Shown in pieces: positions 9,658-32,865 of a stretch of DNA of 64,000 nucleotides. The position numbers were made by a program, and so were the translations under genes. The notes beneath the pieces are model-generated. The model searched no databases. It was not told the origin of the DNA and saw nothing but the letters and a program-made list of their open reading frames with translations. Each line of letters starts with the position of its first letter. Position 1 is the stretch's first letter. The DNA is from an uncultured bacterium. GTDB taxonomy: Bacteria > Omnitrophota > Omnitrophia > Omnitrophales > JACQLI01. The DNA lies in NCBI GenBank assembly GCA_964372875.1, contig CAYJTB010000001.1, positions 27,860-91,859 on the forward strand, given 5' to 3'.

Positions 9658-10662
9658 TTGAAATCACAAGCATCTACTGGTTATAATGCTCCCATGTTGC
9701 GTCGTCTTGTCCTTACCCTAGGTTTTCTTATTTTAGGCACCCTTCCTGCCTGGGCCCAGAAGCAGCTTGTCGATCGGGTGGCCGCTGTTATCAACGACGA
9801 AGCCATTACCCAAAGCGAGCTAGAGATGTATCTGCGTCCCATTTATGAAGGCCTGAAACAGCAATTTGAAGGCGAAGAATTAATGAACCGCTTGAATGAG
9901 ACCCGGCTTAAACTTCTAAATCAAATGATCGAAGACCGTCTTGTTTTTCAAAAAGCCAAGGCCATGGAACTCAAAGCGGAGGACAGTGAGATTGAAGAAG
10001 AAGTGGATAGGCTCAAAAAGCGCTACCCTTCTGAGGAGGCCTTGGAAAAAGAAATGACGAGTCAGGGTTACAGCATGTCAGGGCTTCGGGAAAATATACG
10101 CCGGCAAATCCTCATTCGTAAACTTCAAGACATCGAAGTAAAGTCCCGCGTTATCGTCTCACCCCGCGAGATTGAAGAATATTACAAGTCGCATATCGGT
10201 GAATTCGAACAAGAATTAAGAATGAAGCTGCTTTCCATCACCATTCGTAAAAGTAAAGAGGCCGAGGAAAAAGGACTTGTGGATGAAGCGGCGAAGAAAA
10301 AAATCGAATCCGTTGAATTCCGGATCCGGAGTGGCGAAGACTTTGAGGATTTGGCCCGTCAATTCTCTGAAGATGCCCATGCAGCCGAGGGCGGCCAAGT
10401 CGGCTGGGTCCGTAAAGGCGAATTTCTTCCCTCCATCGAAAAAGCCCTTCACGAATTAAACCAAGGAGCGATTTCCCCAGTGCTGGAAACCGCGGCGGGT
10501 TACCATCTTTTTAGGGTGGAGGAAAAAGATCCCGGGAAGGTGAGTTCGTTGGAGGAAGTACGGGAGAAAATTCGTTCGGTCCTATTCCGCGAAAAGGCTG
10601 AAAAGCGTTTCAAGGAGTGGATGGAAGAATTAAAGACCCAAGCCTACATCTCGGTCCGGTGA
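9658..10662 (+). CDS. SurA-like periplasmic chaperone / parvulin-type peptidyl-prolyl isomerase
   Basis: Signal peptide (MLRRLVLTLGFLILGTLPAWAQ, probable start at 9694), SurA N-domain-like helical region, PpiC domain GGQVGWVRKGEF...GYHLFRVEEK; upstream of pdxA as in the surA-pdxA-rsmA cluster. Confidence 0.8.
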   Translation: MKSQASTGYNAPMLRRLVLTLGFLILGTLPAWAQKQLVDRVAAVINDEAITQSELEMYLRPIYEGLKQQFEGEELMNRLNETRLKLLNQMIEDRLVFQKAKAMELKAEDSEIEEEVDRLKKRYPSEEALEKEMTSQGYSMSGLRENIRRQILIRKLQDIEVKSRVIVSPREIEEYYKSHIGEFEQELRMKLLSITIRKSKEAEEKGLVDEAAKKKIESVEFRIRSGEDFEDLARQFSEDAHAAEGGQVGWVRKGEFLPSIEKALHELNQGAISPVLETAAGYHLFRVEEKDPGKVSSLEEVREKIRSVLFREKAEKRFKEWMEELKTQAYISVR

Positions 10663-10671
10663 CGCCTGGCC

Positions 10672-11721
10672 GTGTTGCAAAAACCCATCATTGCGATCAC
10701 ACAGGGCGATCCCGGCGGGGTCGGTCCCGAAATCATCGCAAAGTCCCTCCAGCATCCTGAAAATTTTTCCGGCGTTTTTCTTCTTCTGATCGGCACCGCC
10801 GTGGTTTTTGAATTTGTCCAAGAAGAATTTGGCATCAAACTCCCTTTAAATCCCATCCCGACCTTGGATCCCCAATTTTTAAGAGACGATTCGCTTAATT
10901 TTTTGGATGTGACGGAAGAAGCGGGATGGCTTTTAAAAAAACACTCCCTGCCCCAGCCCGATGAAAATAATCTTTTTGATATCGGCAAAGTGTCTGCGAC
11001 TAACGCAGCCATGGCCTTGGCGGCCTTGAAGGCCGGGGCGTACCAGGCAGCCACGGGTCTTGTCAATGGACTTGTCACAGCACCTGTGAATAAAGAAGCC
11101 ATTCGACTTCTCGAGCCCAAATTTGTGGGGCATACGGAATATCTGGCCAGAATCGCCCGCACCAAAGAATTCGCCATGATGTTTCTCAAAGCTAAGGACG
11201 AGAGTTCGGGACCTTTGCGGGTGACACTCGTGACCATTCATGTCCCTTTAAAAAAAGTTTCCCGGCTCGTCACTGAAGATGCCATTTTAGAAAAAATCCG
11301 TCTCACACATCAGTTCTTAAAAACCCGCCTTAAAATCGCCAAGCCCCGAATCGGTGTTTCGGCTTTAAATCCGCACGGTCATGAGACGGGGGACGAAGAG
11401 GAAAGAGTGATTTTTCCGGCCATCAAAAAGGCCCAAGAGGAAAATATCTTGGCAAAGGGTCCGGTTTCAGGCGACCGGATTTTTTACGATGCCTCCAAGG
11501 GAATTTATGATGCGGTTATCTCGATGTATCACGACCAGGCGCTGGCGCCCTTTAAATTGGCGGCCTTTGAAACAGGTGTGAATTTAACGCTGGGGCTTCC
11601 CTATGTGCGCACATCGCCTGACCACGGAACCGCCTTTGATATTGCCTACCAGGGAAATGCCAATCCCAAATCCATACAAGCGGCTCTCGCGTTGGCAATT
11701 CAGCTTGTGAAGGTTCGCTGA
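10672..11721 (+). CDS. pdxA: 4-hydroxythreonine-4-phosphate dehydrogenase PdxA
   Basis: ITQGDPGGVGPEI, HGHETGDEE, metal-binding His residues, SPDHGTAFDIA. Confidence 0.9.
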   Translation: MLQKPIIAITQGDPGGVGPEIIAKSLQHPENFSGVFLLLIGTAVVFEFVQEEFGIKLPLNPIPTLDPQFLRDDSLNFLDVTEEAGWLLKKHSLPQPDENNLFDIGKVSATNAAMALAALKAGAYQAATGLVNGLVTAPVNKEAIRLLEPKFVGHTEYLARIARTKEFAMMFLKAKDESSGPLRVTLVTIHVPLKKVSRLVTEDAILEKIRLTHQFLKTRLKIAKPRIGVSALNPHGHETGDEEERVIFPAIKKAQEENILAKGPVSGDRIFYDASKGIYDAVISMYHDQALAPFKLAAFETGVNLTLGLPYVRTSPDHGTAFDIAYQGNANPKSIQAALALAIQLVKVR

Positions 11722-11744
11722 TTTATTTAAATTAAAAGAACTCC

Positions 11745-11877
11745 GTCATCCTGAATGAAGCGACACGTCTTCGAGTGCGGCAAAGCCGCGAAGCCGTGAG
11801 GATCTGCCTTGAGATTCTTTCCGCCAAAGGCGGGCCCGCCTCTGGCGGGCGGCCATAGCCCTCGGCCTCAGAATGAC
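11745..11877. repeat. palindromic MITE-like element with imperfect terminal inverted repeats (GTCATCCTGA ... TCAGAATGAC), GC-rich internal hairpins
   Basis: Convergent intergenic region between pdxA(+) and GT2(-); TIRs related to the GTCATTGCGAGG family found in-frame in tsaD/larB/rsmA. Confidence 0.55.
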
Positions 11878-11884
11878 AGTTTGG

Positions 11885-13594
11885 TTAGTAAACCCGGGCG
11901 GCCCTTCTCTTTTTATTCTTTCCGCCTTTAGGCGCGACAAAAAATTCCATGTATTGGCCGAGGGCCAGGCGTGTCTGTGCATCGAGCGCAGGGACAGCAC
12001 CGAAGATGGTGGCAATGGCCGGGACAAGAAGCCATTGAAGAGCCAAGAAAATCTTTTCATAGAAGGGGACTTTCTTGGGGCGTTTGGGCAGGAGATAAAA
12101 ACTCAGGATAATCGAAATCACAAGGCTTGCGATAGCCATGTTGCAGATGACACCTGCCACCCGAGGCGCATTAAAGTGGGCGACGGTCAAATTGAATTCG
12201 TAATTGGGAACAAGGGCAGGCGCCCAGCTTAAGATCATCATGATGGGGGTCCAGGTGGCCCACGAGACATTCATCTCAAGAAGACGCAGCGCTCGTTTAA
12301 ATTTAAGCCAAAACGGGATCTCCTGATGCTTCAGCATGCCCCTCACGAGAATAGGAAAATTTTCGACCCCCCATGCCCAGCGTCTTTTTTGCCGGTAAAT
12401 GGATTGGCAGGTTTTCCACAAGTTCTCACCGATTGCCACATCCATCGACAACGTAACATAAAGAGGCTCCACCCGGTAATCGCCGTTAAAAATAAGAAAG
12501 GCCTTCCAGAAAATGGCAGAATCATCGGAAACCAGATCCACCGGCCAGTAACCTACTTCGACAAGCGCCTGAAAGCTCATGCTATGGCTTGAAAAGGTAA
12601 CCAAGTGGTCCGGGTCAGTGACTTCGATCAGCTGAAAATAAGAAGACCCTGTTTCTAACACTTGGGCAAAAGAGGGGGCCTCCCAGAGATTGTTATGATA
12701 AACGGGGATGGGCTGAAAACTGGTCCGGGTCCGTTTGGGATGAATCAAATAATTATAGGTGAGGCAAGAAAAATATTCGGTACTTACGACCGTATCCGAG
12801 TCAAAACAGGAAACCACAATGTGATCGAGCGGAGTCCCGCGCGCCTCGAAAAATTTCTTGGCCCAACGCGCGGCATACGTGGCGTTGGCGCCTTTGACCG
12901 CCGCCTCTCCTGGGAGCCCATCGGGATGAATACAGTTTTCAAAGTGGAGGAAATCTTTCGCGTATTCTTCTTTTAAGACCTCCGCAATACGGACCGCCTC
13001 TTTTCCTCCGCGTTCCTCAATCGCAAGGACCACCACGATGTGGTTTTTGGGATAATTCGTTTGTCTTAAAGCCTCAAGCGTGGGTTCTAAGACACTCAGA
13101 CCTTCCCAGAGATAGGGAATAATCACGAGATGATAGATATCTTTTGGATTGGGAAAATGGATTTTATCATGTTGGAGGCGTTTCAAAGTTGCGAGATGCC
13201 TTTTTTCTGAAAAATGAATTTTCCAACCAAGCTTGGGATCGCGAATCCTTTTTTGTGTCCTCGTTATGGCGCTCTCTAAATGGAGAAAATCTTGCAGCCG
13301 GTCAAACCATTGAGCGGTTCGTTCAATTTCAAGAAGCACATAAGAGAGCACCAAAAAAATGGTGAAATAAACCAGCCGGAAAAGCCAGTAGAGATCGAAA
13401 AGAATAACCGTCACAACCCCGGCGACCGGGGCCAAGATACATACGAGTGTAAAGGAAATAAGAAGACTCCAGCTAAGCACGGCGGGGAGGATTTCCAGGC
13501 CACGCTCCAACCGCCCTTCGTTTTTACCCAGATTGTGGCGGGAATATTCAAATTTCATGGAGAATCCTTGGAGGCCGCGGAGGCGGAAACCCAA
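11885..13594 (-). CDS. membrane-bound processive family-2 glycosyltransferase (cellulose/glucan synthase-like)
   Basis: N-terminal TM helices, D...DxD (CFDSDT)...SDD and Q(R/Q)xRW motif (YRQKRRWAWG), C-terminal TM bundle. Confidence 0.8.
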   Translation of the reverse strand: MGFRLRGLQGFSMKFEYSRHNLGKNEGRLERGLEILPAVLSWSLLISFTLVCILAPVAGVVTVILFDLYWLFRLVYFTIFLVLSYVLLEIERTAQWFDRLQDFLHLESAITRTQKRIRDPKLGWKIHFSEKRHLATLKRLQHDKIHFPNPKDIYHLVIIPYLWEGLSVLEPTLEALRQTNYPKNHIVVVLAIEERGGKEAVRIAEVLKEEYAKDFLHFENCIHPDGLPGEAAVKGANATYAARWAKKFFEARGTPLDHIVVSCFDSDTVVSTEYFSCLTYNYLIHPKRTRTSFQPIPVYHNNLWEAPSFAQVLETGSSYFQLIEVTDPDHLVTFSSHSMSFQALVEVGYWPVDLVSDDSAIFWKAFLIFNGDYRVEPLYVTLSMDVAIGENLWKTCQSIYRQKRRWAWGVENFPILVRGMLKHQEIPFWLKFKRALRLLEMNVSWATWTPIMMILSWAPALVPNYEFNLTVAHFNAPRVAGVICNMAIASLVISIILSFYLLPKRPKKVPFYEKIFLALQWLLVPAIATIFGAVPALDAQTRLALGQYMEFFVAPKGGKNKKRRAARVY

Positions 13595-15036
13595 TCATCT
13601 ACCAACCGGGGAAGAATATTTGCCGGCTCGAAAAGCTGGATCCGTGACAATCGGCGGGTAAGGGGATCCGCAAAATAAACAAACCCCCGTCTTTCATCCA
13701 AAGCAATTTGAGGGACTCTTTTTGAAATTTGGAAGAGAGGAACCGCTTGGCCATTGCCTTCAAAATCCAACACCTTTACCCAGCCGCCTTCTACAAATAA
13801 AAGATAATTGTCATTGTAAAACCAAGTGAGATTAGAAATTTTTTGCTCTCCCTGATAAATTTTTCGGGGGGAAACGCCGGTTTGGAAAAATTCTTTTTCC
13901 GGTTCACGCTCAAAATCGACCAGCCAAAGTTCAGAATCTTTCCGGTAGACAGCCCGCCTGTTGAAAACGGCCGTGACCACTTCCTCCACTCTCTTGTCCA
14001 GGTAATAGGGAAGCCGGTTGGAAAAAAGCTTGCCTTGATCCGACAAGAAAAGAGCAAACGCCTCATGAAGCGGAGTGAAGATAAAAGGCCGGGAGAGAAA
14101 ATAGAAGGAATAGCGTTCCCCCTCGTCAGGACCGAAAATAAGGTGCGCCTTGGCGGCCGTGCCCAATAACGTTTTCCGGATTTCCCCTTTTTCAGTTAAT
14201 TCGAATAAACGTCTTCGGGCATCCATCACAAAAAGTTTGCGTCTGTCCGTGGTATAGCCCCGAATCCCGCCCTGCACATCAAAGAGAGGAAACCGTTCTT
14301 CAAAATCCATTTTTTTGAGGGTATCGCCTTGAAGATAAAAGAGTGCATTTTTTTGAGAGGGGCCCCAACGAAACTTATCGAAGGGTTCCTGGAGACTTCC
14401 AGCAAGCGGAGTCAGTTCCATGGGACTCAGGAATTTCACAAGAAAAGGACGAATGCCTTCTTTTTGTTTCATGAAGGCCACGGCCTTTTCGCCTAAGGGA
14501 TGCATCAGGACTTCTCCCACTGGGAAATCATATTCGCCTGAAAAATTGGGGAAAATAGGCTCGAGTTGATTTCGCTCAGGTTCAAAAAGATAGAGCCCGG
14601 AGACGTGATCGCCTTGAAGGACTACAAGTTTTCTTGTCTGTGCAGCGTGCCAGATTTTTGTGATGGGAAAATCCGTGAGCTTCTCCGAATCAAACTGAGT
14701 GGGGAAGAGCAAAATATTTTCAAAAGAAAGGACCTTATCGGCTTTGACCTCCACTTGTTTTTGCCAAGGATGCATTCCCGGCAGGCTCAAGTGAAGGTTA
14801 TAAAAACCGGATTTAAGATTACGAATGACGACAGGGGTGGTGTCTTTCAAGACCCGGTGATTGAGCTCAACCTGGGCTTGGGAGGGGTGTGAATTAAGGC
14901 TGATCAGGCCGGTGAGGAGAAGCTTGGAATGGCTGGGGCTGAAAATATAGCCCAAGGCATAGAGCACGGTCAAAGGTGCTATCACAAGGTAGGCTACGGT
15001 AAAAACCAAGAAGATTGCTTTACGTAAAATTCCCAT
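13555..15036 (-). CDS. hypothetical N-terminally membrane-anchored protein, upstream partner of the GT2 synthase (40-nt overlap)
   Basis: 493 aa; single N-terminal TM (FLVFTVAYLVIAPLTVLYALGYIF) then large extracytoplasmic domain; operon with GT2; no recognisable family by eye. Confidence 0.5.
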   Translation of the reverse strand: MGILRKAIFLVFTVAYLVIAPLTVLYALGYIFSPSHSKLLLTGLISLNSHPSQAQVELNHRVLKDTTPVVIRNLKSGFYNLHLSLPGMHPWQKQVEVKADKVLSFENILLFPTQFDSEKLTDFPITKIWHAAQTRKLVVLQGDHVSGLYLFEPERNQLEPIFPNFSGEYDFPVGEVLMHPLGEKAVAFMKQKEGIRPFLVKFLSPMELTPLAGSLQEPFDKFRWGPSQKNALFYLQGDTLKKMDFEERFPLFDVQGGIRGYTTDRRKLFVMDARRRLFELTEKGEIRKTLLGTAAKAHLIFGPDEGERYSFYFLSRPFIFTPLHEAFALFLSDQGKLFSNRLPYYLDKRVEEVVTAVFNRRAVYRKDSELWLVDFEREPEKEFFQTGVSPRKIYQGEQKISNLTWFYNDNYLLFVEGGWVKVLDFEGNGQAVPLFQISKRVPQIALDERRGFVYFADPLTRRLSRIQLFEPANILPRLVDDWVSASAASKDSP

Positions 15037-15087
15037 GTTGTTCTAACTCCCTATTGGGCCTCATTTTATGCTACTTGGGGGTCATTT

Positions 15088-15116
15088 GACAAGTTACGTT
15101 CCAGAGGGTATCTTTT
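15088..15116 (+). promoter_or_regulatory. sigma70-like promoter (TTGACA-17-TATCTT) in divergent region upstream of giant gene
   Basis: ttgacaagttacgttccagagggtatctt. Confidence 0.4.
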
Positions 15117-15211
15117 GTTACAGTGAAAGAAACTCTTAAGTGAATGTTCCTAAGGGGTTAGCACCTCGACTCTATTGATTTTTTTGGGGTATGCTCGGTG
15201 CTATGGTGAGC

Positions 15212-15240
15212 GAGATTGAAATTGGCGGTGCCAATTTCAA
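15212..15240. promoter_or_regulatory. perfect 12-bp-stem palindrome (gattgaaattgg cggtg ccaatttcaatc) in the leader of the giant gene
   Basis: Seen directly; 76 nt upstream of the ATG at 15316; possible operator or RNA hairpin. Confidence 0.5.
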
Positions 15241-15315
15241 TCGTGTCGAACCATTAGCAACAACTCCAGGGAATTTTTTTACTCTGTAATTCAGACCTTT
15301 AGGAAAGATTAAACT

Positions 15316-18300
15316 ATGACCCTACGCGCGAAAAATTTTTATCTACGCACTGTCGCAGCTTTCACCGCAATCATTTTTTGCTGGAATAGCCTTGCTTGGC
15401 CGCTTCCCGAGGTTGCGGTTCCCCAGGCCGGCAAAACTTTCGATCTCATTCCAAAAGAACTCGGAACCGTCGATGAATACGAACTGCCGGACGCTTCACA
15501 TTCCGCACCCTTTGTCATACATATTCAAGATCTCCACGCAGCACCCGAAGCTCAAGAAAAAATCCTGGACATTCTTAAATTTTTACATTCAAAAAAGAAA
15601 CTTCTCGTAGCGGTCGAAGGAGCCGCCGGAACGCTTCATCCTGAGTATTTAGATTTCTTTCCGCAATACCCGCGTGTCACAAACGCACTCGTTCAAGATT
15701 TGGTAAGTGAGAGCATGCTTACAGGGCCGGCGTTATTCGCATGGGAGAGGTATGAGAGTAAGCCGTCATTGCACCCGTCATTGCGAGGACGTAAGTCCGA
15801 AGCAATCTCAAATCCTAGATTGCTTCGTCGGGCCTTTGGCCCTCCTCACAATGACAATAGCGTCCAATTCATAGGCGTCGAGACGCCGCGTCTTTATCGC
15901 GAAAACCTTAAAGCCTATCGCGATTTTTTCCAGGATGAAGAAAAAAATCAGCAGGATTTGAAATCTTTCCAAACCTCATTGGAATCGGCCCAAACGAAGA
16001 TTTTCAATCCTGATTTGAGGAAATTTGTCCAAGAAGTCCAGAGACGTAAAGATGGAAAGTTTCAATCGGGAAAGGCCTCGCCCGATCTTGCGGCTTACAT
16101 TCGCTTTCTCGCGGATTCAAGCCGAGATCATTTGGGAGTTGATCTAAGAGATAAATTCGAACAGATCCGTTTTCCCAATCTAACCCGCATTCTTTTCTTG
16201 ATGGAATTCGAATCAAAAATCACTGCTCACCAGCGCCGGGTTCTGCATTCTGAAATTGAATCCAAAAAACTTTTTGATGAAATCACACTTCTCGAAACAA
16301 GACTGCGGCAAATACTGGTTAAAAAGCCGGAAGAAACAAAACTTCTTGAGATCCTTGATGATTTCAAGTTGCTTGAGAAGTTATTCCATTTGGAACTGAC
16401 TCGCGAGGAATATTACCAAGTCGTCAACAGGGTTTTGGAAATCAATCCGTCGAATTTACATCAGCGTTTGGCAACCATTGCTGAGATTGCTTCGACCTCG
16501 TCTGAAATGTTGTCTCGCAATGACGCCGATTACGAAACTGCTCTGCGTTTTTACCGCTTAGCCATTCGCAGAGACAAAGCCCTTCTTGAAAATGCCTTGC
16601 GAGAGGCAGCTAAAACGGAGAACTCGTCTCAAGAAAAACCACTCATCGTTCTTGTTACCGGCGGTTTTCACACTTCAGGGGTGAGCGAGCTTCTCAAAGA
16701 AAAGAAAATTCCTTACGCCGTCGTCACGCCTGCCTTAGCAAAAACCAAAGCCAATCAAGACCAATATCACAAACTGATGTCCGGCAAAATGTTCGCCAAA
16801 GAAGCCTCAAGCGCTTCGCCCAAGAATAACAATCTGGTGTGGGCGCAGATTCTTACAGCAAGAGATCGGTACCCGAGCCTCAATTCCGACGAGGATCAGC
16901 AAAAAATATTTTCCCACGCGACTGAAAAGTCCGGCGAGTATTTTCGAAAATTCTATCCCCAAATCTCCGAACCCAAACTGCAAGAACTTTTATCTCGCCC
17001 CGCCGGATTCTTTTCGCAAATCTCCCGTTCCGAATTGCAAAGTAGGAGCCAGATTACGAATTCGGCCATCGATGGCCGAATTGGCGGGAAAAGGGTACTG
17101 CCTTCACGTTTTCCGCGCTCGGAAGTGCGGGCGGTAGAACAGCGATTAGAAGTCAGTGGTCAGAAGACAGAAGGCTGGAGTTCAAAGATAGGAAAAATTA
17201 TCAGGAATGGCAGCGATTTTGGACTATCGAGGGTTTTCCAGCGTAGTCAGGCGAAGAATTATCGAATTCCAAGCCGCTTAGAAAAATCTCGAGGTGAAAG
17301 AATAGAAATCTCTTTAAAGGTTTTCATCGATAGCAGATCGTGGTCTCCTGTGACAATGATCGTTGCTTTAGCTGAAAGAGCGCATTCCAGCACGGCATCA
17401 TCGTCCGGGTCACGGCAGGCCTTTACCTTTGTTTTAGGTTTGACTATCAAAGCTTTCATATGGATCAATGAAATCATTTCTTCAAGCATTTCAGGCGTGA
17501 TCCATTTCTTGAGTTTAGGTTTTTCCAGTGAGCGAAGAAAGTCTTCCAGTAAGGCCGGAGATAAAGCCGCAATGAACTTGTCTTCTTCCAGGGATTCCAG
17601 AATCGAACGGCAAACGCCCGGAAAGGCGAGTCCGCTCACCAGCACATTCACATCAAGAACGACCCGACGCATACCGTTCCTGCCGGGCTTGCTTGACCAG
17701 ATTCAGAAGCTCTTTTCGGCTGAGAGGGTGTTTCTTTCGGCTTTTATCAACTTTGCGGGTCAGAGAACGGAAGCGTTCTCCCCAGGTCTTATGTTCAAGA
17801 CGACGGATCAGGGTAATGCGGTCACGGGATTTCAATTGATTGATCATGCGCTCAATTTGTTGAATGTCTACTTCCACGGCAATCTTAGGCATAGGATTTT
17901 ATCCTCCTCTTCGAATCAGTATAATTTATCGGCCTTGGCGGATCAAAATCAAAACATTTCTTCCGTTAAGCCTTCTAAGCAAAGTTCGACAGAACCGAGC
18001 CGAAGGGCCGCTTCCGGCCCCGAGAGCCGTCAGTCTCCGATCCTAAGCGTCGATAGACCCGGAGGGGCCCGTGGGGAGGTGCGGGCAAAAGAACAGAGGT
18101 CAGAAGTCAGAGAGCAGAGGATAGAGGTCATAAGTCAGAGATCAGAAGGAAAAATTACTTCGAGTGGCGGCGATTTTGGTAGCGTTCGATCAGGTACATC
18201 ACGCCCCAGGCAAGAAATATCAAAACCAAAACAAGAGACACGGTTATCACGTTTTATTTACCCCTTTTCCGAATCTCTTGGGCAAGCCATCCAAGAAATA

Positions 18301-21300
18301 AGAATCATGATGGCTACAATTATAGAGAGAACAGCCTTGGCCTTCAATGAAGTTTTCCAAATGTTTTCGCTCACCACGAGGGCTGCTAATACAAGGCTCA
18401 CCGCCCTCATGATCCCATCAGCAAACAAATTCCGTCTTTTAGATGGAAAAAGGGTTTTCATCTCAATGCTTCAAGCGCCGCAACCTAACACAGGATTAAT
18501 TTTAAGTCAAATATTATTTTTAGAATATGAAATATCCCGCCGCTCGGAGGTGCGGGAATACATCTCGGATTGGACGGTCTCGACCTTGGAAACGAAACAG
18601 CCGGTTTTGGCGGCGGCATTTTCAACGGACGGGAAGATTTTGGCCGCGGGCGCAAGAAACAACGTTCATCTGACCAACGGAGACCTTCGGAAATGGTCCG
18701 TGGAATTTAGGGCCCACCGCAACGAGATTGCAAAACTTATTTCTTTTCAAAGAGGAAACAGGAATTTTTTCGCCACAGCCAGCAGAATCGGCTCGATCAG
18801 CCTATGGAATTCAAACGGCGGGCTGATCCGGCGGCTGGAGCAGCTTAATCCGGAGGATTTCCAACCTGTGTTAGGGTTATCCGTTTCTAAAAATGGAGAT
18901 TGGCTGGCAGCCACGGACATGGATGTAATGAAGATCTACGATCTTACGGGAATGAGTTCCCCTAAAACAATTCCCATCACGGATCAAAGTCGCAATCATT
19001 TCGTTCAATTTTCTCCCGATGGGACGAGCATCGCCTCCACTTATTACGGCGAAATCCGAATCGAGGATATCAAAACCGGAAAACTCCGCGCGAACCTTCA
19101 TCACGAAGCTTCTCTTAAGAAGTCCATGGATACGTCAGCCTTGGCCTTTTCCAAAGGCGATGATGTCGCCGCGGCCTCCACCGACGGAAAAATCAGGATC
19201 TGGAGATGGAAAGGGGAAAGGCAGCCTCAGGTTTTAGATTTTTTGTCACCAGCCCGCGAAGCAAGCCACCTCATCTTTTCACCTAATGGAAAACGTCTCG
19301 CCGCGTCTACGGCAGATCAGATCGAAATATGGAAACTTAATGGAAAAGTGTGGCGTCATGAAGAAACAATCTATCCGCATCTGGACGCCGTGACAGAAAT
19401 TTTATTTTCACCGGATGCAAAACGGTTTATGGCCGCAGGCATTTGGCACGGAAGCGGGAGAGTCCGAATTTGGTCGAAGGAAACGCCGGCAAGGGCCGAA
19501 GTGCGGACCGACGGCATCCCGACAACCTGGTTCCGGATTTTTAACAGGCTGGATAACCTTAACCGGGAAGTGTGGAAACAAAAAGATTTAGACATCATTG
19601 ACCTGACCAACCAATTGGAGAAAAAACTCATCAGCTTATTCGGTTCGCAGCTCCTTTATGGAATCTGGACTTGGAATACTTCAGTTCGGGAAGTACGGTT
19701 TGGCCTTAGGTCGGGGCCTTTAAGTTTTGAATTGACTGCCAACCCGCATCAGGAAATCCCGGAAAGAGAAATTAAAAGGGGATACACGGTAACAATGAAT
19801 GCGATGCTTACTTCCGCTGCGGAAAGTCAGCATGCAAAAAAATGGGGAGACAGCGAACCGGAAGAAAGGGGAGAGACTTTGCTTGAAATTCCTATTGCAG
19901 AGATCGACCGCTCCCAACCTGTTATCTATTTCGGCAGTTTCTATTTTGATACCGACAAGGAAAAGAAAGAAACGATCATCAAACAGGAAATCCTTTTCCT
20001 TCCCGGAGAGGAGAGAAATTATCAAATCTATATTTGGCATAACAACGCCCTTGAAAAAACTACCTTAGAAAAAGAAGGCGGCAGGACCTACGCGGTATGG
20101 AGAACGCCGGAAGCCGAACCTTCCCTTTCGTTTCAATATGTGGCACTGCATGATGCCCAAGGCAAAGACCTGGGCGAAATAAGCCGGCTCATTCTGAAAG
20201 CCGGAAACTCGGAAACTTACAGGAACAACCTTCAATTTCTTTACGGTCCTATTTGGAGAGACGAAACGTCGAGTTTTTCTCATGGTAGCAGAACTTCCGT
20301 AAAACCATCGGTTTTTGAAGACCTTATCTCTGCTGCGCCGGGCAAAAGGATCGCTGCGCTGCTGGGTCTAGCGATTGAATATCAATATGTCCCGGAAGGC
20401 CAAGTATTCAGCCGGATGCTGCTTACCGAATTGGAAAAATTGGAGGGCCTGCCGTACGGACGAATCGCAGCGCTTCGAGAAATTGCGGAAATGAGTCCCG
20501 AGGAAGCCCATGAAAGATTTAAAGATCCCTACGACCAGCCCAGCGCGATCCCGGCCGTCATGACCCTCGTGGCCAGCCTCGCCCCGCGTCTCCTTGAAAG
20601 AATGAAAAATTGGGATCAGGAATTTTATGAAGAGCTAAAAGGGGTCCTGCAAAAACCGGATCTCAAAACTTTATTCGAGGAAGGGGAGGTCAAATTTTAT
20701 GAGGCGGATCATCTCTGGGCCGCTTCAGATAACCGATCTTTTTTCCCTGGTGTTGTCGCCTTTTCAAGGAGTAAAGACCGGCAAATCATCGTCCCAATCT
20801 ATTTCGGCAACGAACCGAAAGATGAAGACGGCAAAGTCTGGTTTAAAATCTTGGACGCCACATCGCTTGGAATCGAGAATTCAAATGCCGCCACTTACCA
20901 AGTCTACGACCACATGCTCGGGGAATTTTATAAAACACTTCATTCAGGGGAAAAACTTTATCGAGAGGGTTGGAGCATCGGCATTCCGGTCGTCCCGGGA
21001 AAGCTGGACCGGGCCGGGTTTATCCAAAAGGGACGGCATGTTCAATTTTTGGAAATGCGAAGGACCCAATCTCTAACGACGGCGACCCGGATCGGCTTGC
21101 CGGAAAATCTTGTCAAGACACAAGGGATTCTTACGGATCTTTTGAGAGAAATGAGTAAACTCGAAATTTATTTTTTTATCAGTAAGACCGGTGCAACCGA
21201 TCGGCGCATGGTGCCTGTGGATAACGTTTATGAATTTTTTTCATCCTATGCGGGGAAAAAAGGCGAGCATTGGAATGAAATCGTAAGTGAGCCCCTTCAA

Positions 21301-27300: not shown

Positions 27301-28719
27301 ATAAAAAATCATTTTCTGACCGCGCTTCATCATTTCATTTGGGAACACAGCGACTTTGAAGATGCGAAGAATTTAGCCAGAGAACTCGGTAACTTGAGCC
27401 TAATCAGTTCTTTGTTGGGTGAGCCCCTCAGTAAAAGACAGGCCGCTTTTTATAAGCGCGCACTTTTGAGCTCTGACCGCACGCAGCAGAAGATCGCGCT
27501 TGGCTTCTTCGAGACTTTCCCTGATCTTGAAAAAATGGACTGGAAAGAGGAAGTCGTTGGTAAACTTAAAGAAATCGTAATGGATGAATCCGAAGATTCT
27601 GAATTTAGAAAATATGCCTTTGAAGCGTTGACAAACAATATTCTTCTTATAGAGCCAGCCTTTTTGGCGCCTTATTTTAAAGAGCCGCGCAGCCAACGGT
27701 TTCGAATCATTTCTTCGGATAAAAAAGGCGCTCGGATTTTATTTTCGGTTCTTCAGAAGAAATTTGGGTCGCCTTTAAAGGACCCGCCCCTTTTTAAAAA
27801 AAGTTCCGAGTCCATCATTTTATCAGGAGAATTTACGACAGGTCTGAGAAATGCTGCCATGTTGATCCGATTTGTAAGGCAGGCCTACGGCCGGGAGATA
27901 TCCTTTGATGAGTCCCGCGGCTTGCTTAAAGAGATGAAAAAGAAACAAGACAGATCCCGGCGTTCCGAAATACGGAGTGAAAGCTTGGATTCGACGTGGG
28001 AGTTGAGGGAGGATGCGAACAAAGGAAAGCTTGCGGAACTTGGAAAACAATTTGCGCCGATGATTGAGAGTCTTTGGAAACGCTCCGAGGTCAGGCACAG
28101 GCTTGCGACGGACGGATTTTTGAATCTTTCAAAGCTGATTGAAATTCCCAAAGCCGAAGCGGCTGAACCTGCGATTGTAGCTGCGCTTTTGATCCGTGCA
28201 GAACAATCCCAAACCGGAACGCCGGCTTTGGACAAACATTTGCAAGTGTGGCAGTCGCGCATGGGAATCAGTTCGGTTGCTAAAGAAAATGAAGTCGTAA
28301 TCCTCTTAGAAGGTGCGGCGTTTAAACTCGGACTCTTGGCTGCGATCGACGGAATTAGCCCGGCAGCTCCGAAGATCGGCGTTGTGGCGCCCAAGGCTTA
28401 CCATTCTTTAGTGGAAGAAGTCAGAAGCGGTCTTAGAACCGGGCAAGAACTGATCGAAGGGGAGAAGCTTCCCGAAATTTTAAATCAAATTGCTCAGATG
28501 AAACAGAAGCCAAGCCGCTTAACGATTTGGGCTTCGAAGGAAGACTCGTTCTTAACAGCAGCGTTCATCAAACGTTTTCTTAAAGATCCAAACCTGAATG
28601 TAGAAGTAAAGACCGTGACGCAGCGCGATCTTGACCGCGCCAACGCGTCTCACCCCGGCTTTGCGGAACGTATCAAGAACTTCCTCGCCGCCGTCAAATC
28701 CCTCAGCATTTCCGCTTAA
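15316..28719 (+). CDS. giant secreted multi-domain protein (4467 aa): signal peptide, helical N-region, 7-blade WD40-like beta-propeller, three ~70-aa WN..HP repeats, Pol-beta-like nucleotidyltransferase-like motif, HEAT/ARM-like helical C-terminus; contains recurrent RSEVR motifs and in-frame GC-rich hairpin repeats
   Basis: Single uninterrupted 13.4-kb ORF; N-terminus MTLRAKNFYLRTVAAFTAIIFCWNSLAWP; WD40-like blades ~18.55-19.5 kb; GSLGVLGSAVRDKSDLNLMVV at ~25.49 kb; RBS aggaaag upstream. Confidence 0.8.
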   Translation: MTLRAKNFYLRTVAAFTAIIFCWNSLAWPLPEVAVPQAGKTFDLIPKELGTVDEYELPDASHSAPFVIHIQDLHAAPEAQEKILDILKFLHSKKKLLVAVEGAAGTLHPEYLDFFPQYPRVTNALVQDLVSESMLTGPALFAWERYESKPSLHPSLRGRKSEAISNPRLLRRAFGPPHNDNSVQFIGVETPRLYRENLKAYRDFFQDEEKNQQDLKSFQTSLESAQTKIFNPDLRKFVQEVQRRKDGKFQSGKASPDLAAYIRFLADSSRDHLGVDLRDKFEQIRFPNLTRILFLMEFESKITAHQRRVLHSEIESKKLFDEITLLETRLRQILVKKPEETKLLEILDDFKLLEKLFHLELTREEYYQVVNRVLEINPSNLHQRLATIAEIASTSSEMLSRNDADYETALRFYRLAIRRDKALLENALREAAKTENSSQEKPLIVLVTGGFHTSGVSELLKEKKIPYAVVTPALAKTKANQDQYHKLMSGKMFAKEASSASPKNNNLVWAQILTARDRYPSLNSDEDQQKIFSHATEKSGEYFRKFYPQISEPKLQELLSRPAGFFSQISRSELQSRSQITNSAIDGRIGGKRVLPSRFPRSEVRAVEQRLEVSGQKTEGWSSKIGKIIRNGSDFGLSRVFQRSQAKNYRIPSRLEKSRGERIEISLKVFIDSRSWSPVTMIVALAERAHSSTASSSGSRQAFTFVLGLTIKAFIWINEIISSSISGVIHFLSLGFSSERRKSSSKAGDKAAMNLSSSRDSRIERQTPGKASPLTSTFTSRTTRRIPFLPGLLDQIQKLFSAERVFLSAFINFAGQRTEAFSPGLMFKTTDQGNAVTGFQLIDHALNLLNVYFHGNLRHRILSSSSNQYNLSALADQNQNISSVKPSKQSSTEPSRRAASGPESRQSPILSVDRPGGARGEVRAKEQRSEVREQRIEVISQRSEGKITSSGGDFGSVRSGTSRPRQEISKPKQETRLSRFIYPFSESLGQAIQEIRIMMATIIERTALAFNEVFQMFSLTTRAANTRLTALMIPSANKFRLLDGKRVFISMLQAPQPNTGLILSQILFLEYEISRRSEVREYISDWTVSTLETKQPVLAAAFSTDGKILAAGARNNVHLTNGDLRKWSVEFRAHRNEIAKLISFQRGNRNFFATASRIGSISLWNSNGGLIRRLEQLNPEDFQPVLGLSVSKNGDWLAATDMDVMKIYDLTGMSSPKTIPITDQSRNHFVQFSPDGTSIASTYYGEIRIEDIKTGKLRANLHHEASLKKSMDTSALAFSKGDDVAAASTDGKIRIWRWKGERQPQVLDFLSPAREASHLIFSPNGKRLAASTADQIEIWKLNGKVWRHEETIYPHLDAVTEILFSPDAKRFMAAGIWHGSGRVRIWSKETPARAEVRTDGIPTTWFRIFNRLDNLNREVWKQKDLDIIDLTNQLEKKLISLFGSQLLYGIWTWNTSVREVRFGLRSGPLSFELTANPHQEIPEREIKRGYTVTMNAMLTSAAESQHAKKWGDSEPEERGETLLEIPIAEIDRSQPVIYFGSFYFDTDKEKKETIIKQEILFLPGEERNYQIYIWHNNALEKTTLEKEGGRTYAVWRTPEAEPSLSFQYVALHDAQGKDLGEISRLILKAGNSETYRNNLQFLYGPIWRDETSSFSHGSRTSVKPSVFEDLISAAPGKRIAALLGLAIEYQYVPEGQVFSRMLLTELEKLEGLPYGRIAALREIAEMSPEEAHERFKDPYDQPSAIPAVMTLVASLAPRLLERMKNWDQEFYEELKGVLQKPDLKTLFEEGEVKFYEADHLWAASDNRSFFPGVVAFSRSKDRQIIVPIYFGNEPKDEDGKVWFKILDATSLGIENSNAATYQVYDHMLGEFYKTLHSGEKLYREGWSIGIPVVPGKLDRAGFIQKGRHVQFLEMRRTQSLTTATRIGLPENLVKTQGILTDLLREMSKLEIYFFISKTGATDRRMVPVDNVYEFFSSYAGKKGEHWNEIVSEPLQLTVSSPGFKRQTLRHALRMMQEALQLTYSFPGTLKGNDPHLSFYHDKLIEETQLLKTSDQTGKWAHVEFEIASSHFEMPDHWDQPAENSLRQRIQALREALEIPFVLMLKAPSGAKDPYHIEPVGNLHQRLPYFVLKDDFLKNPHDPRFPYFSKGAQLSFGLEAPMDSARLEQVRNILVASLEGRMSAATLKRAIEVTMHQWQREDSFFSESRSEARRVPRTLAVHPVRLAPGTPLYPDRSGPGVAVQSHWNSARSEVRTEKSERLTRSNAGELLKPRRYLKNKIYGIGRITAVEGKFGGKDPQGSVEVAFLNKHGFEETKEFSTWSLFQLPEQNPEEAFFSVTRQEIEDFKNQKRQGQAAYKEEIDKKRIAQREGRQWMEAQSPTFSLYDSPFSARAGRPLAADYRKLMQGIQDRAQGEYHLGSASIVERKILFEMLGTRLIPKTNQSETTLRINLGRRKKEFAEKLKTILDETGGLSARAVSEAEEKIMSPKDKSRALSSEWLKFRDPVTGKFATEKDIKRWIQNAIPIVERILEYEVKLLKLEKQIQIHPRPLARSEVRAAESSPTKKVAFFNLRTADDSSIVLPQRMSYLPVEQRLPDYSAWRIRVGRESGNLHAFLRDVLGPRWHWNVKGETKAYFLYKSLPKKFKQFIGKRKPPTGFDMEALGLLVVNRSDIFYIPMEETVNESVVTVLDKNDRDAINEFISHHAMIQTVPQNIRIFPPVRYESVKFGLGEDPVSSPKPGSIEVVYHPRLMVNDLGKADKEIIFETSFDLTQLRPRKKITAELEGRFYQELKSRLRNTWQIRIGNRTVEMPRAKDLPAKVQDVEEILLPGNNRKTASLHFNDAVSFYLDGILMRSNVPVPKDIHAWIFWKTRIRFNDQEISVETTEGNNVLTYRTDETGEHLRVNGEPTDNSVLQNMIRQMGSAFSILAFQMARDPEQTDYLRESGKETIDDEFDQWLGRSEVREEGQPAQNGNGHAIQKKQRGRGFRTKEEALQALAERQAKGLSSDPKSLQRHLAEGGNPTLLTFIYRWNQKHPEEPIEMKLLPTRTHKYESKGEIIEALEKRRLEKGESANYRMQLRLHIEEGGDRTLYQAVLRWNHDHPEDLINLPLDPHVAHGQLGKYQTKQDGLNTLSERKKQGLGNSTSDLRQTKSDGGDWPLLVFIRHWNKKHPKDRIALENADQNFNRLSPVAVWHSQTQDFKTTDQKRTEWWRALQEEADHEAGKRLVESFIPSVNEIAQRLSGGRDSHYEADLIQNGNMIVLETIYPERKEDQWNPSRGVSMTEFVETRLKKEMRHRTLQEIRSSGRFSIDEPYRFSKGREKEWQVPSYDAQPQEVRINNLADERDKQSGLPVILFEEKHQIAREIGKWLIKKGFLKQVKQEGIQNLAVSMIGSLGVLGSAVRDKSDLNLMVVTDANESQAEALAEKLAQWIGGRYHEPQDSEPIRISVGKEGDYEQAIADGNGFISLLQKHKVGTDPIKGIASVEVIGIPDEDNSFSEDSLTRQKTRAAFHLAFQDPRLAEQAINGILVLENAKGAAERLAQKLPSDQENLFGYYEKFLAKQAANLRKLQESSIDSKARAEVHPNPTDSGTPQSSPDQARAEVRSSLPEQRAEKKLETRKLEIGAGISGLSGRVETSNGRVFSGSDRLPIKSTRSPQKSEWQGQPSFSLPPLRSLPQKSSPNKSISRVLLERQAAISGRVLGKALLPELLLIGPKSHAETTLPASPSGPLSGIYFSQNKIYSNINSELSDFSRSDGSTSSPSVLSKAEGRVERAEVHPNPTDSGTPPHSRPTGVSTEVSLAAPPGAPPSSPERARAEVRASVEEIIRKQMLSGDLKAFEKNFESYDREKAFELLNSISKIAKEISERIRKGEEELMVAANNGQKMQEIIDAAKILENFPNDKQIHGVHLSAIINLQEIFNLTPKALPRYRNLLEAIVKHASKKEQPHQAAAEIIESFEGEQHADSQQDQFQRNEALEFLTLDLDEKVFKETVIKNHFLTALHHFIWEHSDFEDAKNLARELGNLSLISSLLGEPLSKRQAAFYKRALLSSDRTQQKIALGFFETFPDLEKMDWKEEVVGKLKEIVMDESEDSEFRKYAFEALTNNILLIEPAFLAPYFKEPRSQRFRIISSDKKGARILFSVLQKKFGSPLKDPPLFKKSSESIILSGEFTTGLRNAAMLIRFVRQAYGREISFDESRGLLKEMKKKQDRSRRSEIRSESLDSTWELREDANKGKLAELGKQFAPMIESLWKRSEVRHRLATDGFLNLSKLIEIPKAEAAEPAIVAALLIRAEQSQTGTPALDKHLQVWQSRMGISSVAKENEVVILLEGAAFKLGLLAAIDGISPAAPKIGVVAPKAYHSLVEEVRSGLRTGQELIEGEKLPEILNQIAQMKQKPSRLTIWASKEDSFLTAAFIKRFLKDPNLNVEVKTVTQRDLDRANASHPGFAERIKNFLAAVKSLSISA
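17259..17672 (-). CDS. PIN-domain toxin (TIGR00305-like), encoded antisense inside the giant ORF
   Basis: MRRVVLDVNVLVSGL...CRDPDDDAVLECALSAKATIIVTGDHDLL: conserved acidic residues of the PIN fold. Confidence 0.75.
   Translation of the reverse strand: MRRVVLDVNVLVSGLAFPGVCRSILESLEEDKFIAALSPALLEDFLRSLEKPKLKKWITPEMLEEMISLIHMKALIVKPKTKVKACRDPDDDAVLECALSAKATIIVTGDHDLLSMKTFKEISILSPRDFSKRLGIR
17653..17892 (-). CDS. putative antitoxin partner of the nested PIN toxin
   Basis: 79-aa basic/helical protein overlapping the PIN start by 20 nt (classic TA arrangement); no recognisable fold by eye. Confidence 0.5.
   Translation of the reverse strand: MPKIAVEVDIQQIERMINQLKSRDRITLIRRLEHKTWGERFRSLTRKVDKSRKKHPLSRKELLNLVKQARQERYASGRS
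18258..18461 (-). CDS. small (67 aa) 2-TM membrane protein, antisense inside giant ORF; paralog of 26324..26533
   Basis: MKTLFPSKRRNLF...VSLVLAALVV...SLKAKAVLSIIVAIMILISW; AT-rich promoter-like region immediately upstream on the minus strand (TTGACT at 18505-18510). Confidence 0.5.
   Translation of the reverse strand: MKTLFPSKRRNLFADGIMRAVSLVLAALVVSENIWKTSLKAKAVLSIIVAIMILISWMACPRDSEKG
21972..22113 (+). repeat. in-frame GC-rich hairpin cluster inside giant ORF (paralogous to 26062-26130 and 26630-26790)
   Basis: gtgcacccg-loop-cgggtactcc flanks shared with the 26-kb copies; stems cccggtgc/gcaccggg, acccggacc/ggtccgggt, cattggaac...gttccaatg; ends in RSEVR codons. Confidence 0.5.
26062..26130 (+). 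repeat. in-frame structured repeat unit (40-nt perfect repeat + second hairpin) inside giant ORF
   Basis: gccgaggtgcacccgaatccgaccgattcgggtactcctc identical at 26062-26101 and 26644-26683; hairpin cccgaatc/gattcggg; second hairpin cctcgcc-cgatca-ggcgagg. Confidence 0.6.
26324..26533 (-). CDS. small (69 aa) 2-TM membrane protein, antisense inside giant ORF; paralog of 18258..18461
   Basis: GTG start; MKSIFLTTARRDWL...VILVLLAGVLGG...SLKWRLVVLGGLVICFYLGLIF; shares MK(S/T)(I/L)F, K.SLK...VL...V.I pattern with the other copy; AT-rich region with TTGATA upstream on minus strand. Confidence 0.5.
   Translation of the reverse strand: MKSIFLTTARRDWLAKLFQHVILVLLAGVLGGELFLKLSLKWRLVVLGGLVICFYLGLIFAASSSKEED
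26630..26790 (+). repeat. in-frame structured repeat unit, second copy, with four hairpins
   Basis: Same 40-nt repeat; additional stems actcacgcc/ggcgtgagt, cctggcggc/gccgccagg, cctcgcc-tgaacg-ggcgagg (loop differs from copy 1 while stem is kept). Confidence 0.6.
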
Positions 28720-28737
28720 TCTTGTTTCAAACCACGT

Positions 28738-28766
28738 TTGACAAACATGCCAAATTGTATTACACT
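28738..28766 (+). promoter_or_regulatory. sigma70-like promoter TTGACA-17-TACACT upstream of vapBC
   Basis: ttgacaaacatgccaaattgtattacact, followed by RBS GGAGG before ATG 28808. Confidence 0.45.
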
Positions 28767-28807
28767 TTACCGATCGATAAGTTAATCGTATGACAACGGA
28801 GGCTTGA

Positions 28808-29017
28808 ATGACACGAGTGACAGTTTCCCCAAAATATCAAATCGTGATCCCTAAAGAAATTAGGGAAAAGTTGGATATTCGGTGCGGACAGAAGATGGCC
28901 GTCGTAACAAGAGGGGAATGGATTATGCTGGTTCCCGATCTGCCTTTGAAACATTATCGGGGGTTTTTGAAAGGTGTGAGTTCAGAGGGGGTTCGTGACC
29001 GAAGGGACCGGTTTTGA
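28808..29017 (+). CDS. vapB: AbrB/MazE-fold antitoxin (VapB-like)
   Basis: 69 aa, MTRVTVSPKYQIVIPKEIREKLDIRCGQKMAVV swapped-hairpin motif; 4-nt overlap with downstream PIN gene. Confidence 0.75.
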   Translation: MTRVTVSPKYQIVIPKEIREKLDIRCGQKMAVVTRGEWIMLVPDLPLKHYRGFLKGVSSEGVRDRRDRF

Positions 29018-29391
29018 CGGTCATCGATTCAAGCGGTTGGATTGAGTTTTTTAGCGAAGGTCCACTTGCCTCCCATTATGAAAAGCATTTGGGGTCTTTG
29101 TCTGAGATTGTCGTTCCTACCATTGTGCTTTATGAAGTCTACAAGAAATATAAGAGAGAAAGCGGAGAGCAAGGCGCTTTGACCGCGGTGTTTCATATGC
29201 AAAAGTGCCGGATCGTACCTTTAACAGAAGAATTGAGTTTGGAGGCGGCGGATTTAAGCCTTCAATACGGACTTGCCATGGCCGATGCGATTGTTTATGC
29301 GTCGGCACTTCAGGAAAAAGCAAAGTTAATCACCAGCGATAAAGCCTTAAAAAATCTGCCTCAAGTGGTTTACTACAGTAAATCGTCCTAA
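29014..29391 (+). CDS. vapC: PIN-domain ribonuclease toxin VapC
   Basis: 125 aa, VIDSSGWIEFF...conserved Asp/Glu, ADAIVYASA, LITSD. Confidence 0.75.
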   Translation: MTVIDSSGWIEFFSEGPLASHYEKHLGSLSEIVVPTIVLYEVYKKYKRESGEQGALTAVFHMQKCRIVPLTEELSLEAADLSLQYGLAMADAIVYASALQEKAKLITSDKALKNLPQVVYYSKSS

Positions 29392-29397
29392 GATTCC

Positions 29398-30312: not shown

Positions 30313-30331
30313 AATTCATTATCCGGAAGGA

Positions 30332-30420
30332 CACGAGTCTCGTCGTCACTCGTAACGCCCCTGCGAGACAGTCCCCTTCTATATTGTTTCTTTTCAAGGA
30401 TCGGGGCAAGTCCCCGTGGG
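30332..30420 (+). repeat. intergenic repeat B1 (~90 nt), inverted copy at 32753-32845
   Basis: cacgagtctcgtcgtcactcgtaacgcccctgcgagacagtccccttctatattgtttcttttcaaggatcggggcaagtccccgtggg; ~90% identical to the reverse complement of 32753-32845. Confidence 0.7.
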
Positions 30421-32752: not shown

Positions 32753-32845
32753 CGCCCCACAAGGGGGCTGTCCCGATCCTTGAAAAGAAACAATATAGAA
32801 GGGGACTGTCTCGCAGGGACGTTGCGAGTGGCGACGAGACTTGTG
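32753..32845 (-). repeat. intergenic repeat B4, inverted copy of B1; B1 and B4 bracket gatC-gatA
   Basis: ccgccccacaagggggctgtcccgatccttgaaaagaaacaatatagaaggggactgtctcgcagggacgttgcgagtggcgacgagacttgtg. Confidence 0.7.
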
Positions 32846-32865
32846 CCTGCAGCGGATGGAAATTA

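Follow-up and report, generated by a model that had tools for sequence, protein, structure and literature searches.

A 64,000-nucleotide stretch of contig CAYJTB010000001.1 from an uncultured bacterium of the Omnitrophota (the window hereafter) carries two short open reading frames (ORFs) on its minus strand, at 18258-18461 and 26324-26533, both of which lie antisense within a plus-strand ORF of 13.4 kb (15316-28719). An original prediction made from the letters alone had described them as paralogous genes for small proteins with two transmembrane (TM) helices and had likened their products to small membrane toxins or holin-like peptides. Comparative analysis shows that each ORF belongs to a conserved unit that is complete in itself and is present in two paralogous copies. 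The unit consists of a sigma-70-type promoter, the gene for the two-helix (2-TM) protein of about 67-70 amino acids (aa) and a tightly coupled gene for a peptide of about 30 aa. These units sit antisense at module junctions of a giant Omnitrophota ORF whose own frame is selected to stay open through them. This active opening of the giant frame, which the original prediction overlooked, is the most unusual feature of the arrangement. The favoured reading as a whole, in which conserved units are nested at the junctions, the giant frame is read through them and each unit acts as a three-helix membrane module of the addiction or toxin-antitoxin (TA) kind, is considered moderately probable from sequence comparisons.

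The two-gene cassette and its protein family

Both minus-strand ORFs are present in the ORF list at these coordinates, and their antisense nesting in the giant ORF is confirmed. Copy 1 (18258-18461) encodes 67 aa from an ATG, and copy 2 (26324-26533) encodes 69 aa from a GTG and is probably leaderless; the MK(T/S) start that had been proposed as common to both thus holds for copy 1 but not for copy 2, in which 'MKS' is V-K-S in the DNA. When the two peptides are aligned directly, their similarity is weak (31% identity over 45 aa in BLASTP, E 5e-4; p = 0.002 in a composition-preserving shuffle), whereas the family profile recovers copy 1 with an E-value of 4.7e-26 and copy 2 with one of 3.1e-27. 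The paralogy, judged by these alignments, is real and goes beyond shared hydrophobic composition. Two hydrophobic helices are seen in the hydropathy of the protein, in agreement with an AlphaFold2 model from the family alignment in which helices 7-30 and 39-59 form a helical hairpin (mean pLDDT 69). Across copy 1 the codon score of the minus frame is higher than that of the plus frame. A 168-aa ORF on the same strand at 26115-26621 lies in a different frame and was rejected as being without support.

A profile built from the two ORFs and run against 1.84 billion representative proteins gave 30 matches at E <= 1e-3, the best at 1.9e-19 and five at or below 1e-10. All but two of the 30 are 50-95 aa long, and nearly all align almost end to end; the closest database relative of copy 1 is P0014, with 62% identity. 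The shared plan consists of a basic N-terminus (F-T-x-x-R-R-x-x-L-A-K-x-F), a first helix ending in S/G-E/D-x-F-x-K, a short turn, a second helix and an acidic tail. On this basis a new family of two-helix proteins of 65-90 aa was defined by alignment A3, with a full-length profile match as the mark of membership, and both window copies belong to it. No above-threshold family was found for the 2-TM protein in Pfam, NCBIfam, PADLOC or PHROGs, and no relative in a sequence search of the PDB. The Pfam family DUF6722 (PF20482), like the present one a short family of unknown function, gives a partial match in two of the 30 members at 20.4 and 14.5 bits, below its gathering cut-off of 27 bits, and does not match the window copies.

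Other routes to the family were empty: a word-based homologue search with copy 1 returned nothing, a metagenome scan with alignment A5 yielded no relative, and two scans of the IMG/VR viral contigs were likewise without relatives. Exact database look-ups of both small proteins and of the giant ORF also found nothing, because gene callers leave these ORFs uncalled. The distribution of the matches, of which 25 of the 30 representatives reside on contigs of at most 3.5 kb, fits a bias in which gene callers would mask the family under giant ORFs while repeats break the assemblies.

Each 2-TM ORF is followed after 0-7 nt by a second gene, which the original prediction had also overlooked. In copy 1 this mini-gene (18155..18250, minus strand) starts with a GTG, begins 7 nt past the 2-TM stop and encodes a 31-aa single-TM peptide, VITVSLVLVLIFLAWGVMYLIERYQNRRHSK. 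In copy 2 (26234..26323, minus strand) the ATG abuts the 2-TM stop, an AGGAGG lies 8 nt upstream, and the product is the 29-aa single-TM peptide MTAVLAILIFAAISLTLLAIDHFRKKHAH. A mini-gene is present at every related locus with readable DNA downstream of the 2-TM gene (L002, L005-8, L009, L010/11 with two copies, L015, L016/19, L017, L018, L020 and L021), where its start lies between -8 and +8 nt relative to the 2-TM stop, behind a ribosome-binding site. These mini-peptides are 29-34 aa long, reach a maximum hydropathy of 2.5-2.9 and have basic tails; across loci they align in the helix and, after it, in [DE]-x-[YFR]-R-x-[KR]-H-x-H, in which one histidine is invariant. The 2-TM protein, for its part, is basic at the N-terminus and acidic in its C-terminal tail, to be set beside the basic, His-containing tail of the mini-peptide ([DE]x[YF]Rx[KR]HxH). 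Pfam gave no match for the copy-2 peptide or for the region of the copy-1 peptide read in a shifted frame, such peptides being too short for a sensitive test.

The promoter-like sequence of copy 1, TTGACT-N17-TAGGTT (18482..18510, minus strand), is the best promoter match and is stop-free in the giant frame. That of copy 2, TTAACT-N17-TATATT (26541..26569, minus strand; -35 box TTAACT at 26569-26564), aligns with TTGACT...TATATT at the related locus L021. Of the two -35-like hexamers that had been pointed out in the AT-rich DNA ahead of the ORFs, the TTGACT of copy 1 is retained, but the TTGATA of copy 2 falls inside the spacer, the best-supported -35 box being TTAACT. The geometry is conserved: TTGAC[AT]-N17-TAnnnT is found upstream in nine of 11 cassettes and is perfect in L009 (TTGACA-N17-TATAAT). 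In six cassettes, including copy 2 with 7 nt, the -10 box ends 7-10 nt from the start codon, which suggests that their mRNA is leaderless. The absence of a ribosome-binding site on the 2-TM gene would be explained by such a leaderless mRNA; in the window at large, such a site is found in front of only about half of the genes.

Selection on the cassette can be read from L021 (OBEQ011820058), which carries an orthologue of copy 2. The two align without gaps over 333 nt at 80.5% DNA identity, in a match that extends from the -35 box exactly to the mini-gene stop, while the flanks are unrelated. Because the match spans the -35 box to the peptide stop and dN/dS is low, the unit is taken to be the promoter together with the two genes. 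Between the two species 62 of 69 residues of the 2-TM protein are identical (dN/dS 0.045, dS 1.37), as are 25 of 29 residues of the mini-peptide (dN/dS 0.073), whereas the opposite, giant frame shows an apparent omega of 4.3 and is stop-free in both. Although standard dN/dS is biased where frames overlap, the distribution of the differences over the codon positions of the small genes (14/5/38 at positions 1/2/3) is an asymmetry robust to that bias. Purifying selection at the amino-acid level is accordingly not found for both antisense products, given the apparent omega of the giant frame; the comparison indicates that it is strong on both small genes, which behave as constrained coding sequences, and that in the giant frame it is the openness alone that is conserved and not the amino-acid sequence. 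Together with the family homologues, the conserved gene pair and the conserved promoter geometry, these ratios bear out the earlier claim that the two ORFs are paralogous, real genes.

The giant frame through the cassettes

The host ORF (15316-28719, plus strand) encodes 4467 aa, is composed of modules joined by the motif R-[S/A]-E-V-R, contains a single cysteine and remains open through three antisense cassettes. These are a PIN cassette, cassette 1 (copy 1 and its mini-gene) and cassette 3 (copy 2 and its mini-gene). In a codon-usage scan the giant ORF is coding on the plus strand except at 17100-18460 and 26100-26740, two stretches in which coding switches to the minus strand. Over 477 and 238 codons the giant frame contains no stop, as against 23-28 and 10-11 stops in the other plus frames.

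This openness was assessed by resampling in which synonymous codons were drawn anew while the nested protein sequences were kept. For the six nested genes the probability of a giant frame with neither stop nor cysteine was 0.46, 0.002, 0.002, 0.058, 0.10 and 0.035, and the joint probability, taken as the product over the six, is 4e-10; the non-genic parts of the cassettes would lower the chance of an open giant frame further. All three phases with respect to the giant frame are represented among the nested genes, so that the open frame is not the by-product of a single phase. Both frames of the antisense pairs are thus open beyond chance, and the synonymous codon choice of the nested genes is constrained so as to keep the giant frame open.

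Antisense nesting that preserves the frame is found at no fewer than five other loci in independent assemblies. In another Omnitrophota assembly (L002) a divergent cassette of 2-TM and peptide genes lies antisense in a giant ORF, exactly between VHRSEVRAK and FVRSEMREK; a codon-usage scan of the relatives' giant ORFs, which is insensitive to short cassettes, had overlooked this cassette, and it was later found with the family profile. Two tandem cassettes are present in L010-L014, which comprise Candidatus Omnitrophica PCRL01000145 and four short contigs. In these short contigs, at 39% GC, the opposite frame is open throughout for 519, 475, 358 and 332 codons, while the other frames contain 10-57 stops. 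Open opposite frames of 600 and 394 codons (L016/L019), 1142 codons (L017), 477 codons (L020) and 838 codons (L021) encode 0-2 cysteines each. Related cassettes are thus found in unrelated giant-ORF contexts, and they are also found free-standing: between mscL and dnaE in four assemblies (L005-L008), in L009 and in L018. Conversely, two of the four giant-ORF loci examined (L003, L004) are without a cassette.

Module junctions and cassette boundaries

The motif R-[S/A]-E-V-R punctuates the giant ORF at 14 places (nt 17119, 18073, 18100, 18544, 19495, 22066, 22975, 24199, 26062, 26125, 26644, 26770, 27964 and 28084), and every cassette in the window lies between two of them. The copy at 18544..18558 (plus strand), for instance, marks the promoter side of cassette 1 and is followed by a WD40 module. 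Within the giant ORF there are 11 matches to the pattern R[SA]E[VILM]R, against none in the 15,425 aa of 43 other ORFs, and R-[S/A]-E-[V/M/L/I]-R recurs at module junctions of homologues (L002, L003, L004, P0001, P0004-P0006 and P0011). All five of its codons vary synonymously, which identifies it as a motif at the peptide level and rules out a recombination site at the DNA level. A function as ribosome-binding site was also ruled out, GGAGGTG being present in only some copies. The cassette-adjacent copies share GARGTGCGGG, probably by common descent. It is put forward as a candidate site at which a polyprotein is cleaved, or as a candidate linker.

Cysteine is depleted from the same proteins. 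The only one in the 4467 aa of the giant ORF lies in the N-terminal signal-like segment, compared with a frequency of 0.73% in the other genes of the window, and related giant ORFs (including those of L003, L004 and L002, the latter at 9791-20947) contain 0-4 cysteines in 1290-3923 aa. Within the cassettes the giant frame has no cysteine codon, where the resampling null expects about two within the nested genes.

The PIN cassette (17259..17892, minus strand) contains an antitoxin-like gene (17653-17892, with GGAGG) and a PIN_3 toxin gene (17259-17672; PF13470, E 8e-18), which confirms that one 2-TM copy sits beside a nested PIN TA pair as had been noticed. Its promoter is TTGATC-N17-TATACT (17946-17918, minus strand), and it too lies antisense between two R-S-E-V-R motifs with the giant frame open through it. 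The PIN cassette and cassette 1 have a common 3' flank of about 110 nt, with 76% identity at a distance of 954 nt. In the PIN cassette this flank covers 17114..17223 and is read by the giant frame as PRSEVRAVEQRLEV; in cassette 1 it covers 18068..18179, a direct repeat of 17114-17222 (repeat families D1, D3, D4, D6 and D11), and the reading begins GEVRAKEQRSEVREQ. The cassette-1 flank is C/U-rich and unstructured on the cassette strand, with no stable fold. A relic of the last eight or so codons of a mini-gene, which lies behind the PIN gene (17198-17223), suggests that one cassette has replaced another.

Hairpin ends are confined to copy 2. Downstream of cassette 3 lies a GC-rich element of two hairpins (26050..26140; -46.6 kcal/mol, z -4.1), which forms a terminator-like site on the minus strand and is read by the giant frame as ARAEVHPNPTDSGTP...ARAEVR. 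Upstream lies a GC-rich element of four hairpins (26640..26785; -95.1 kcal/mol, z -6.9), a direct repeat of 26056-26135. These repeats, spaced by 582 and 645 nt, are found just twice in the window and read in frame as, for example, AEVHPNPTDSGTP. A separate Logan assembly of this organism matches 26752-30376 at 100% identity, with its break in the four-hairpin element. Because the spacings of 954, 582 and 645 nt are all multiples of three, a recombination event joining two repeats would leave the giant frame intact. In L010 (7941-9098) and throughout L011, each tandem cassette is preceded by the repeat CCACGG(T/C)AGTTCTTAGGCCT(T/C)GCGGCTGGGT, which reads QPQGLRTTVA in the open antisense frame. 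It differs from the window flanks, and the boundary element therefore differs between lineages. A gene for a 91-aa coiled-coil protein travels with the first of these two cassettes.

Possible role and rival explanations

In the favoured reading, the giant ORF would be translated straight through the cassettes, which in the plus frame are rich in S, R and P and could serve as disposable spacer. The module junctions would be the only 'intergenic' space of the giant gene, in which small cassettes could persist as long as the antisense strand stays open. The most likely role of the unit would then be that of an addiction or TA-like membrane module, drawn from the same cassette pool as the adjacent PIN pair and possibly stabilising a costly giant gene against deletion. 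TA genes do recur as neighbours: besides the PIN pair of the window, an AF2212-like antitoxin gene lies beside the L016 cassette and a CopG antitoxin pair near that of L005.

With regard to the toxin itself, the label of small membrane toxin is possible for the 2-TM protein, and the mini-peptide, by analogy, is the better-fitting candidate: with fewer than 60 aa, one hydrophobic helix and a charged C-terminus, it has the build of a type I membrane toxin and resembles Hok, TisB, Fst, Ldr and Ibs in its single helix and charged tail. The cassettes further resemble type I and chromosomal TA cassettes in being compact, in having their own promoter, and in their multi-copy and patchy occurrence beside type II TA genes. 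TA cassettes stabilise superintegrons, and the embedding in a long, deletion-prone region is similar. The differences from type I systems are that no homology with any known toxin family was seen, that no antitoxin RNA was found with Rfam, and that the partner is a conserved two-helix protein and not an RNA or a soluble antitoxin.

Several points weigh against the favoured reading. Nothing in Pfam, NCBIfam, PADLOC or PHROGs relates the 2-TM family by sequence to a known toxin, antitoxin or holin, and the 21 window sequences that were scanned include no recombinase or transposase that could have moved the cassettes. An avoidance of cysteine specific to the cassettes is suggestive at best, and the bias of dN/dS in overlapping frames leaves the codon-position asymmetry as the robust part of the selection argument. 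The reading also leans on two suppositions, namely that the R-S-E-V-R sites may be cleaved, which would allow the spacer to be removed, and that the 2-TM protein and the peptide would assemble in the membrane as a heteromer of three helices by way of the opposite charges on their cytoplasmic tails. Finally, the stable free-standing copies fit a small housekeeping membrane complex as well as they fit an addiction module. A bolder version, considered less likely than not, takes the giant ORFs for polyproteins cut at R-S-E-V-R, with the junctions as protein-level 'introns' that host a hitherto unknown class of cassettes. These would combine a promoter with small membrane-protein or TA genes and be adapted to antisense read-through, selfish or stabilising and hidden from gene callers under the giant ORF.

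If the nesting itself were functional, the cassette could be a dedicated accessory of the giant protein, helping to anchor, insert, process or secrete it, or its inward-facing promoter could control expression of the giant gene by convergent transcription or by an antisense RNA. This is consistent with the recurrence of nesting, seen in six or more different giant or long ORFs, with its position at R-S-E-V-R junctions both in the window and in L002, with the signal-peptide- or anchor-like N-terminus of the giant ORF and with strong cassette promoters that oppose the transcription of the giant gene. It is nevertheless judged unlikely, as copies stand free away from any long ORF (L005-L008, L009 and L018), giant ORFs exist without a cassette (L003 and L004), the same cassette lies in an unrelated module context in L021, and the neighbouring cassette in a like position holds an ordinary PIN TA pair. 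The housekeeping complex mentioned above would be, for example, an ion- or stress-related three-helix unit that resides at junctions only because compact genomes leave few other dispensable places, with neither an addiction role nor a link to the giant protein. Very strong purifying selection, a stable free-standing position across four assemblies within one lineage and a conserved His-containing tail, whose invariant His could bind a metal or a partner, all agree with it. Two diverged paralogues within 8 kb in the window, tandem paralogues in L010/L011, the same cassette in different contexts, TA genes as recurrent neighbours and the concentration of representatives on short contigs, as expected of repeated or hidden elements, make it improbable.

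The likeness to holins fares worse. A protein with two TM helices within 65-95 aa and a likely N-in/C-in topology does recall class II holins and pinholins, and it could belong to a lysis cassette that stems from a prophage or from what is left of a phage. As a rule, however, holins end in a basic tail, while that of the 2-TM protein is acidic and there is no dual-start motif. Neither a PHROG family match nor a relative on IMG/VR contigs was found, and among the neighbours listed or scanned, which are chromosomal and TA genes, no endolysin, spanin or other phage gene was seen, so that this part of the original prediction is set aside as very improbable. Equally hard to credit is an artefact in which the small ORFs are chance antisense ORFs, or in which the giant ORF is really several genes and open only by chance, mis-assembly or composition. 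Such a view could appeal to gene callers, which give just one of the two readings, to a plus-frame codon score near zero or negative within the cassettes and to the weak initial pairwise similarity of the two ORFs. Against it stand the 28 short homologues, the free-standing copies with promoters and ribosome-binding sites, the dN/dS values of 0.045-0.073, the joint probability of about 4e-10 for openness within the nested genes, the recurrence of openness in assemblies from at least five other organisms, the identical Logan assembly and the lack of a start codon of their own near the junction in the modules downstream of the cassettes.

As to known forms of nesting, bacterial antisense overlapping genes are similar in that selection keeps both opposite-strand frames open. 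In described antisense overlaps the long 'mother' gene is conserved and the embedded gene is young, whereas here the embedded genes are old, mobile and strongly constrained, and the host frame is only stop-free with an apparent omega above one. Rickettsia palindromic elements and other in-frame selfish DNA, with inteins as the analogue at the protein level, offer a partial parallel: there too the inserted DNA is a multiple of three in length and leaves the host frame free of stops, so that the host protein can still be made. Translated palindromic hairpins flank copy 2; the flanks of copy 1 are unstructured. Such elements are not known to carry independently expressed genes on the opposite strand, while the insert in the window has a promoter and two protein genes; the self-splicing domain of inteins is absent from it, and removal at R-S-E-V-R would be hypothetical. 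As regards integron gene cassettes, which would show an attC-type imperfect palindrome at their 3' end and an integron integrase and attI site close by, hairpins are found only around copy 2, no recombinase is present among the 21 scanned window sequences, and the cassettes are dispersed within a gene in place of an array.

Giant 'multi-enzyme' ORFs are a published feature of the Omnitrophota (bioRxiv 10.1101/2023.11.21.568195; 10.64898/2026.06.07.730766), and one of these two preprints gives the cleavage points as unknown. The host ORF resembles them in its many unrelated modules in a single frame, with homologues in Candidatus Omnitrophica and Omnitrophota. The main-text passages and term searches of these preprints, like the rest of the literature as far as it was searched, do not mention a junction motif, cysteine depletion or nested antisense genes, all of which are present here. 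Within those same limits, frame-preserving antisense nesting of this kind appears to be previously undescribed.

The arrangement is a type of bacterial nesting in which the host frame is selected only for openness, and it would imply that giant ORFs are translated end to end. With R-S-E-V-R, the giant proteins of the Omnitrophota gain a first candidate for a motif of junction or cleavage. The 2-TM and peptide genes make up a new small membrane module of two genes, possibly a novel type of membrane TA system, which could stabilise giant genes. For annotation, the consequence is that standard procedures systematically hide real conserved genes under giant ORFs, the family having been recovered almost only from short contigs.

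The window is otherwise ordinary bacterial chromosome, and the wider surroundings of the giant ORF are those of an insertion. The chromosomal neighbourhood surA-pdxA...ksgA, commonly contiguous, is split in the window by about 17.6 kb (11722-29397) that contain a family-2 glycosyltransferase gene and a PEGA-domain gene (both envelope genes on the minus strand), the giant ORF, and a MazE-type antitoxin gene with a PIN toxin gene. This last pair (28800-29391, plus strand; 2057-2640 in L001) follows right after the giant-ORF stop and precedes ksgA. The N-terminal module of the giant ORF matches, at 34-39% identity, only long multi-domain proteins or loci named Candidatus Omnitrophica or Omnitrophota; with modules homologous to long Omnitrophota proteins, and with many unrelated modules in a single frame, the ORF belongs to the giant modular class. 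Reassignment of a codon in an alternative genetic code is unneeded, since all three stop codons are absent from the giant frame, and an Rfam scan of 15000-29500 found no RNA family.

Two further features were observed. A tandem domain of about 65 aa (...EAL..L..R...G......L...L.EGG[DN]..L...) is present in the giant ORF at about 24280-24900 (aa about 2990-3190) and in the long ORF of L016 (1-540), its one database match being a weak one to Arm-DNA-bind_4 (E 0.003). In the comparison of L001 with the window, a 49-nt inverted repeat with 90% identity is found at 30328-30376 and 32801-32848, and the independent Logan contig ends there.

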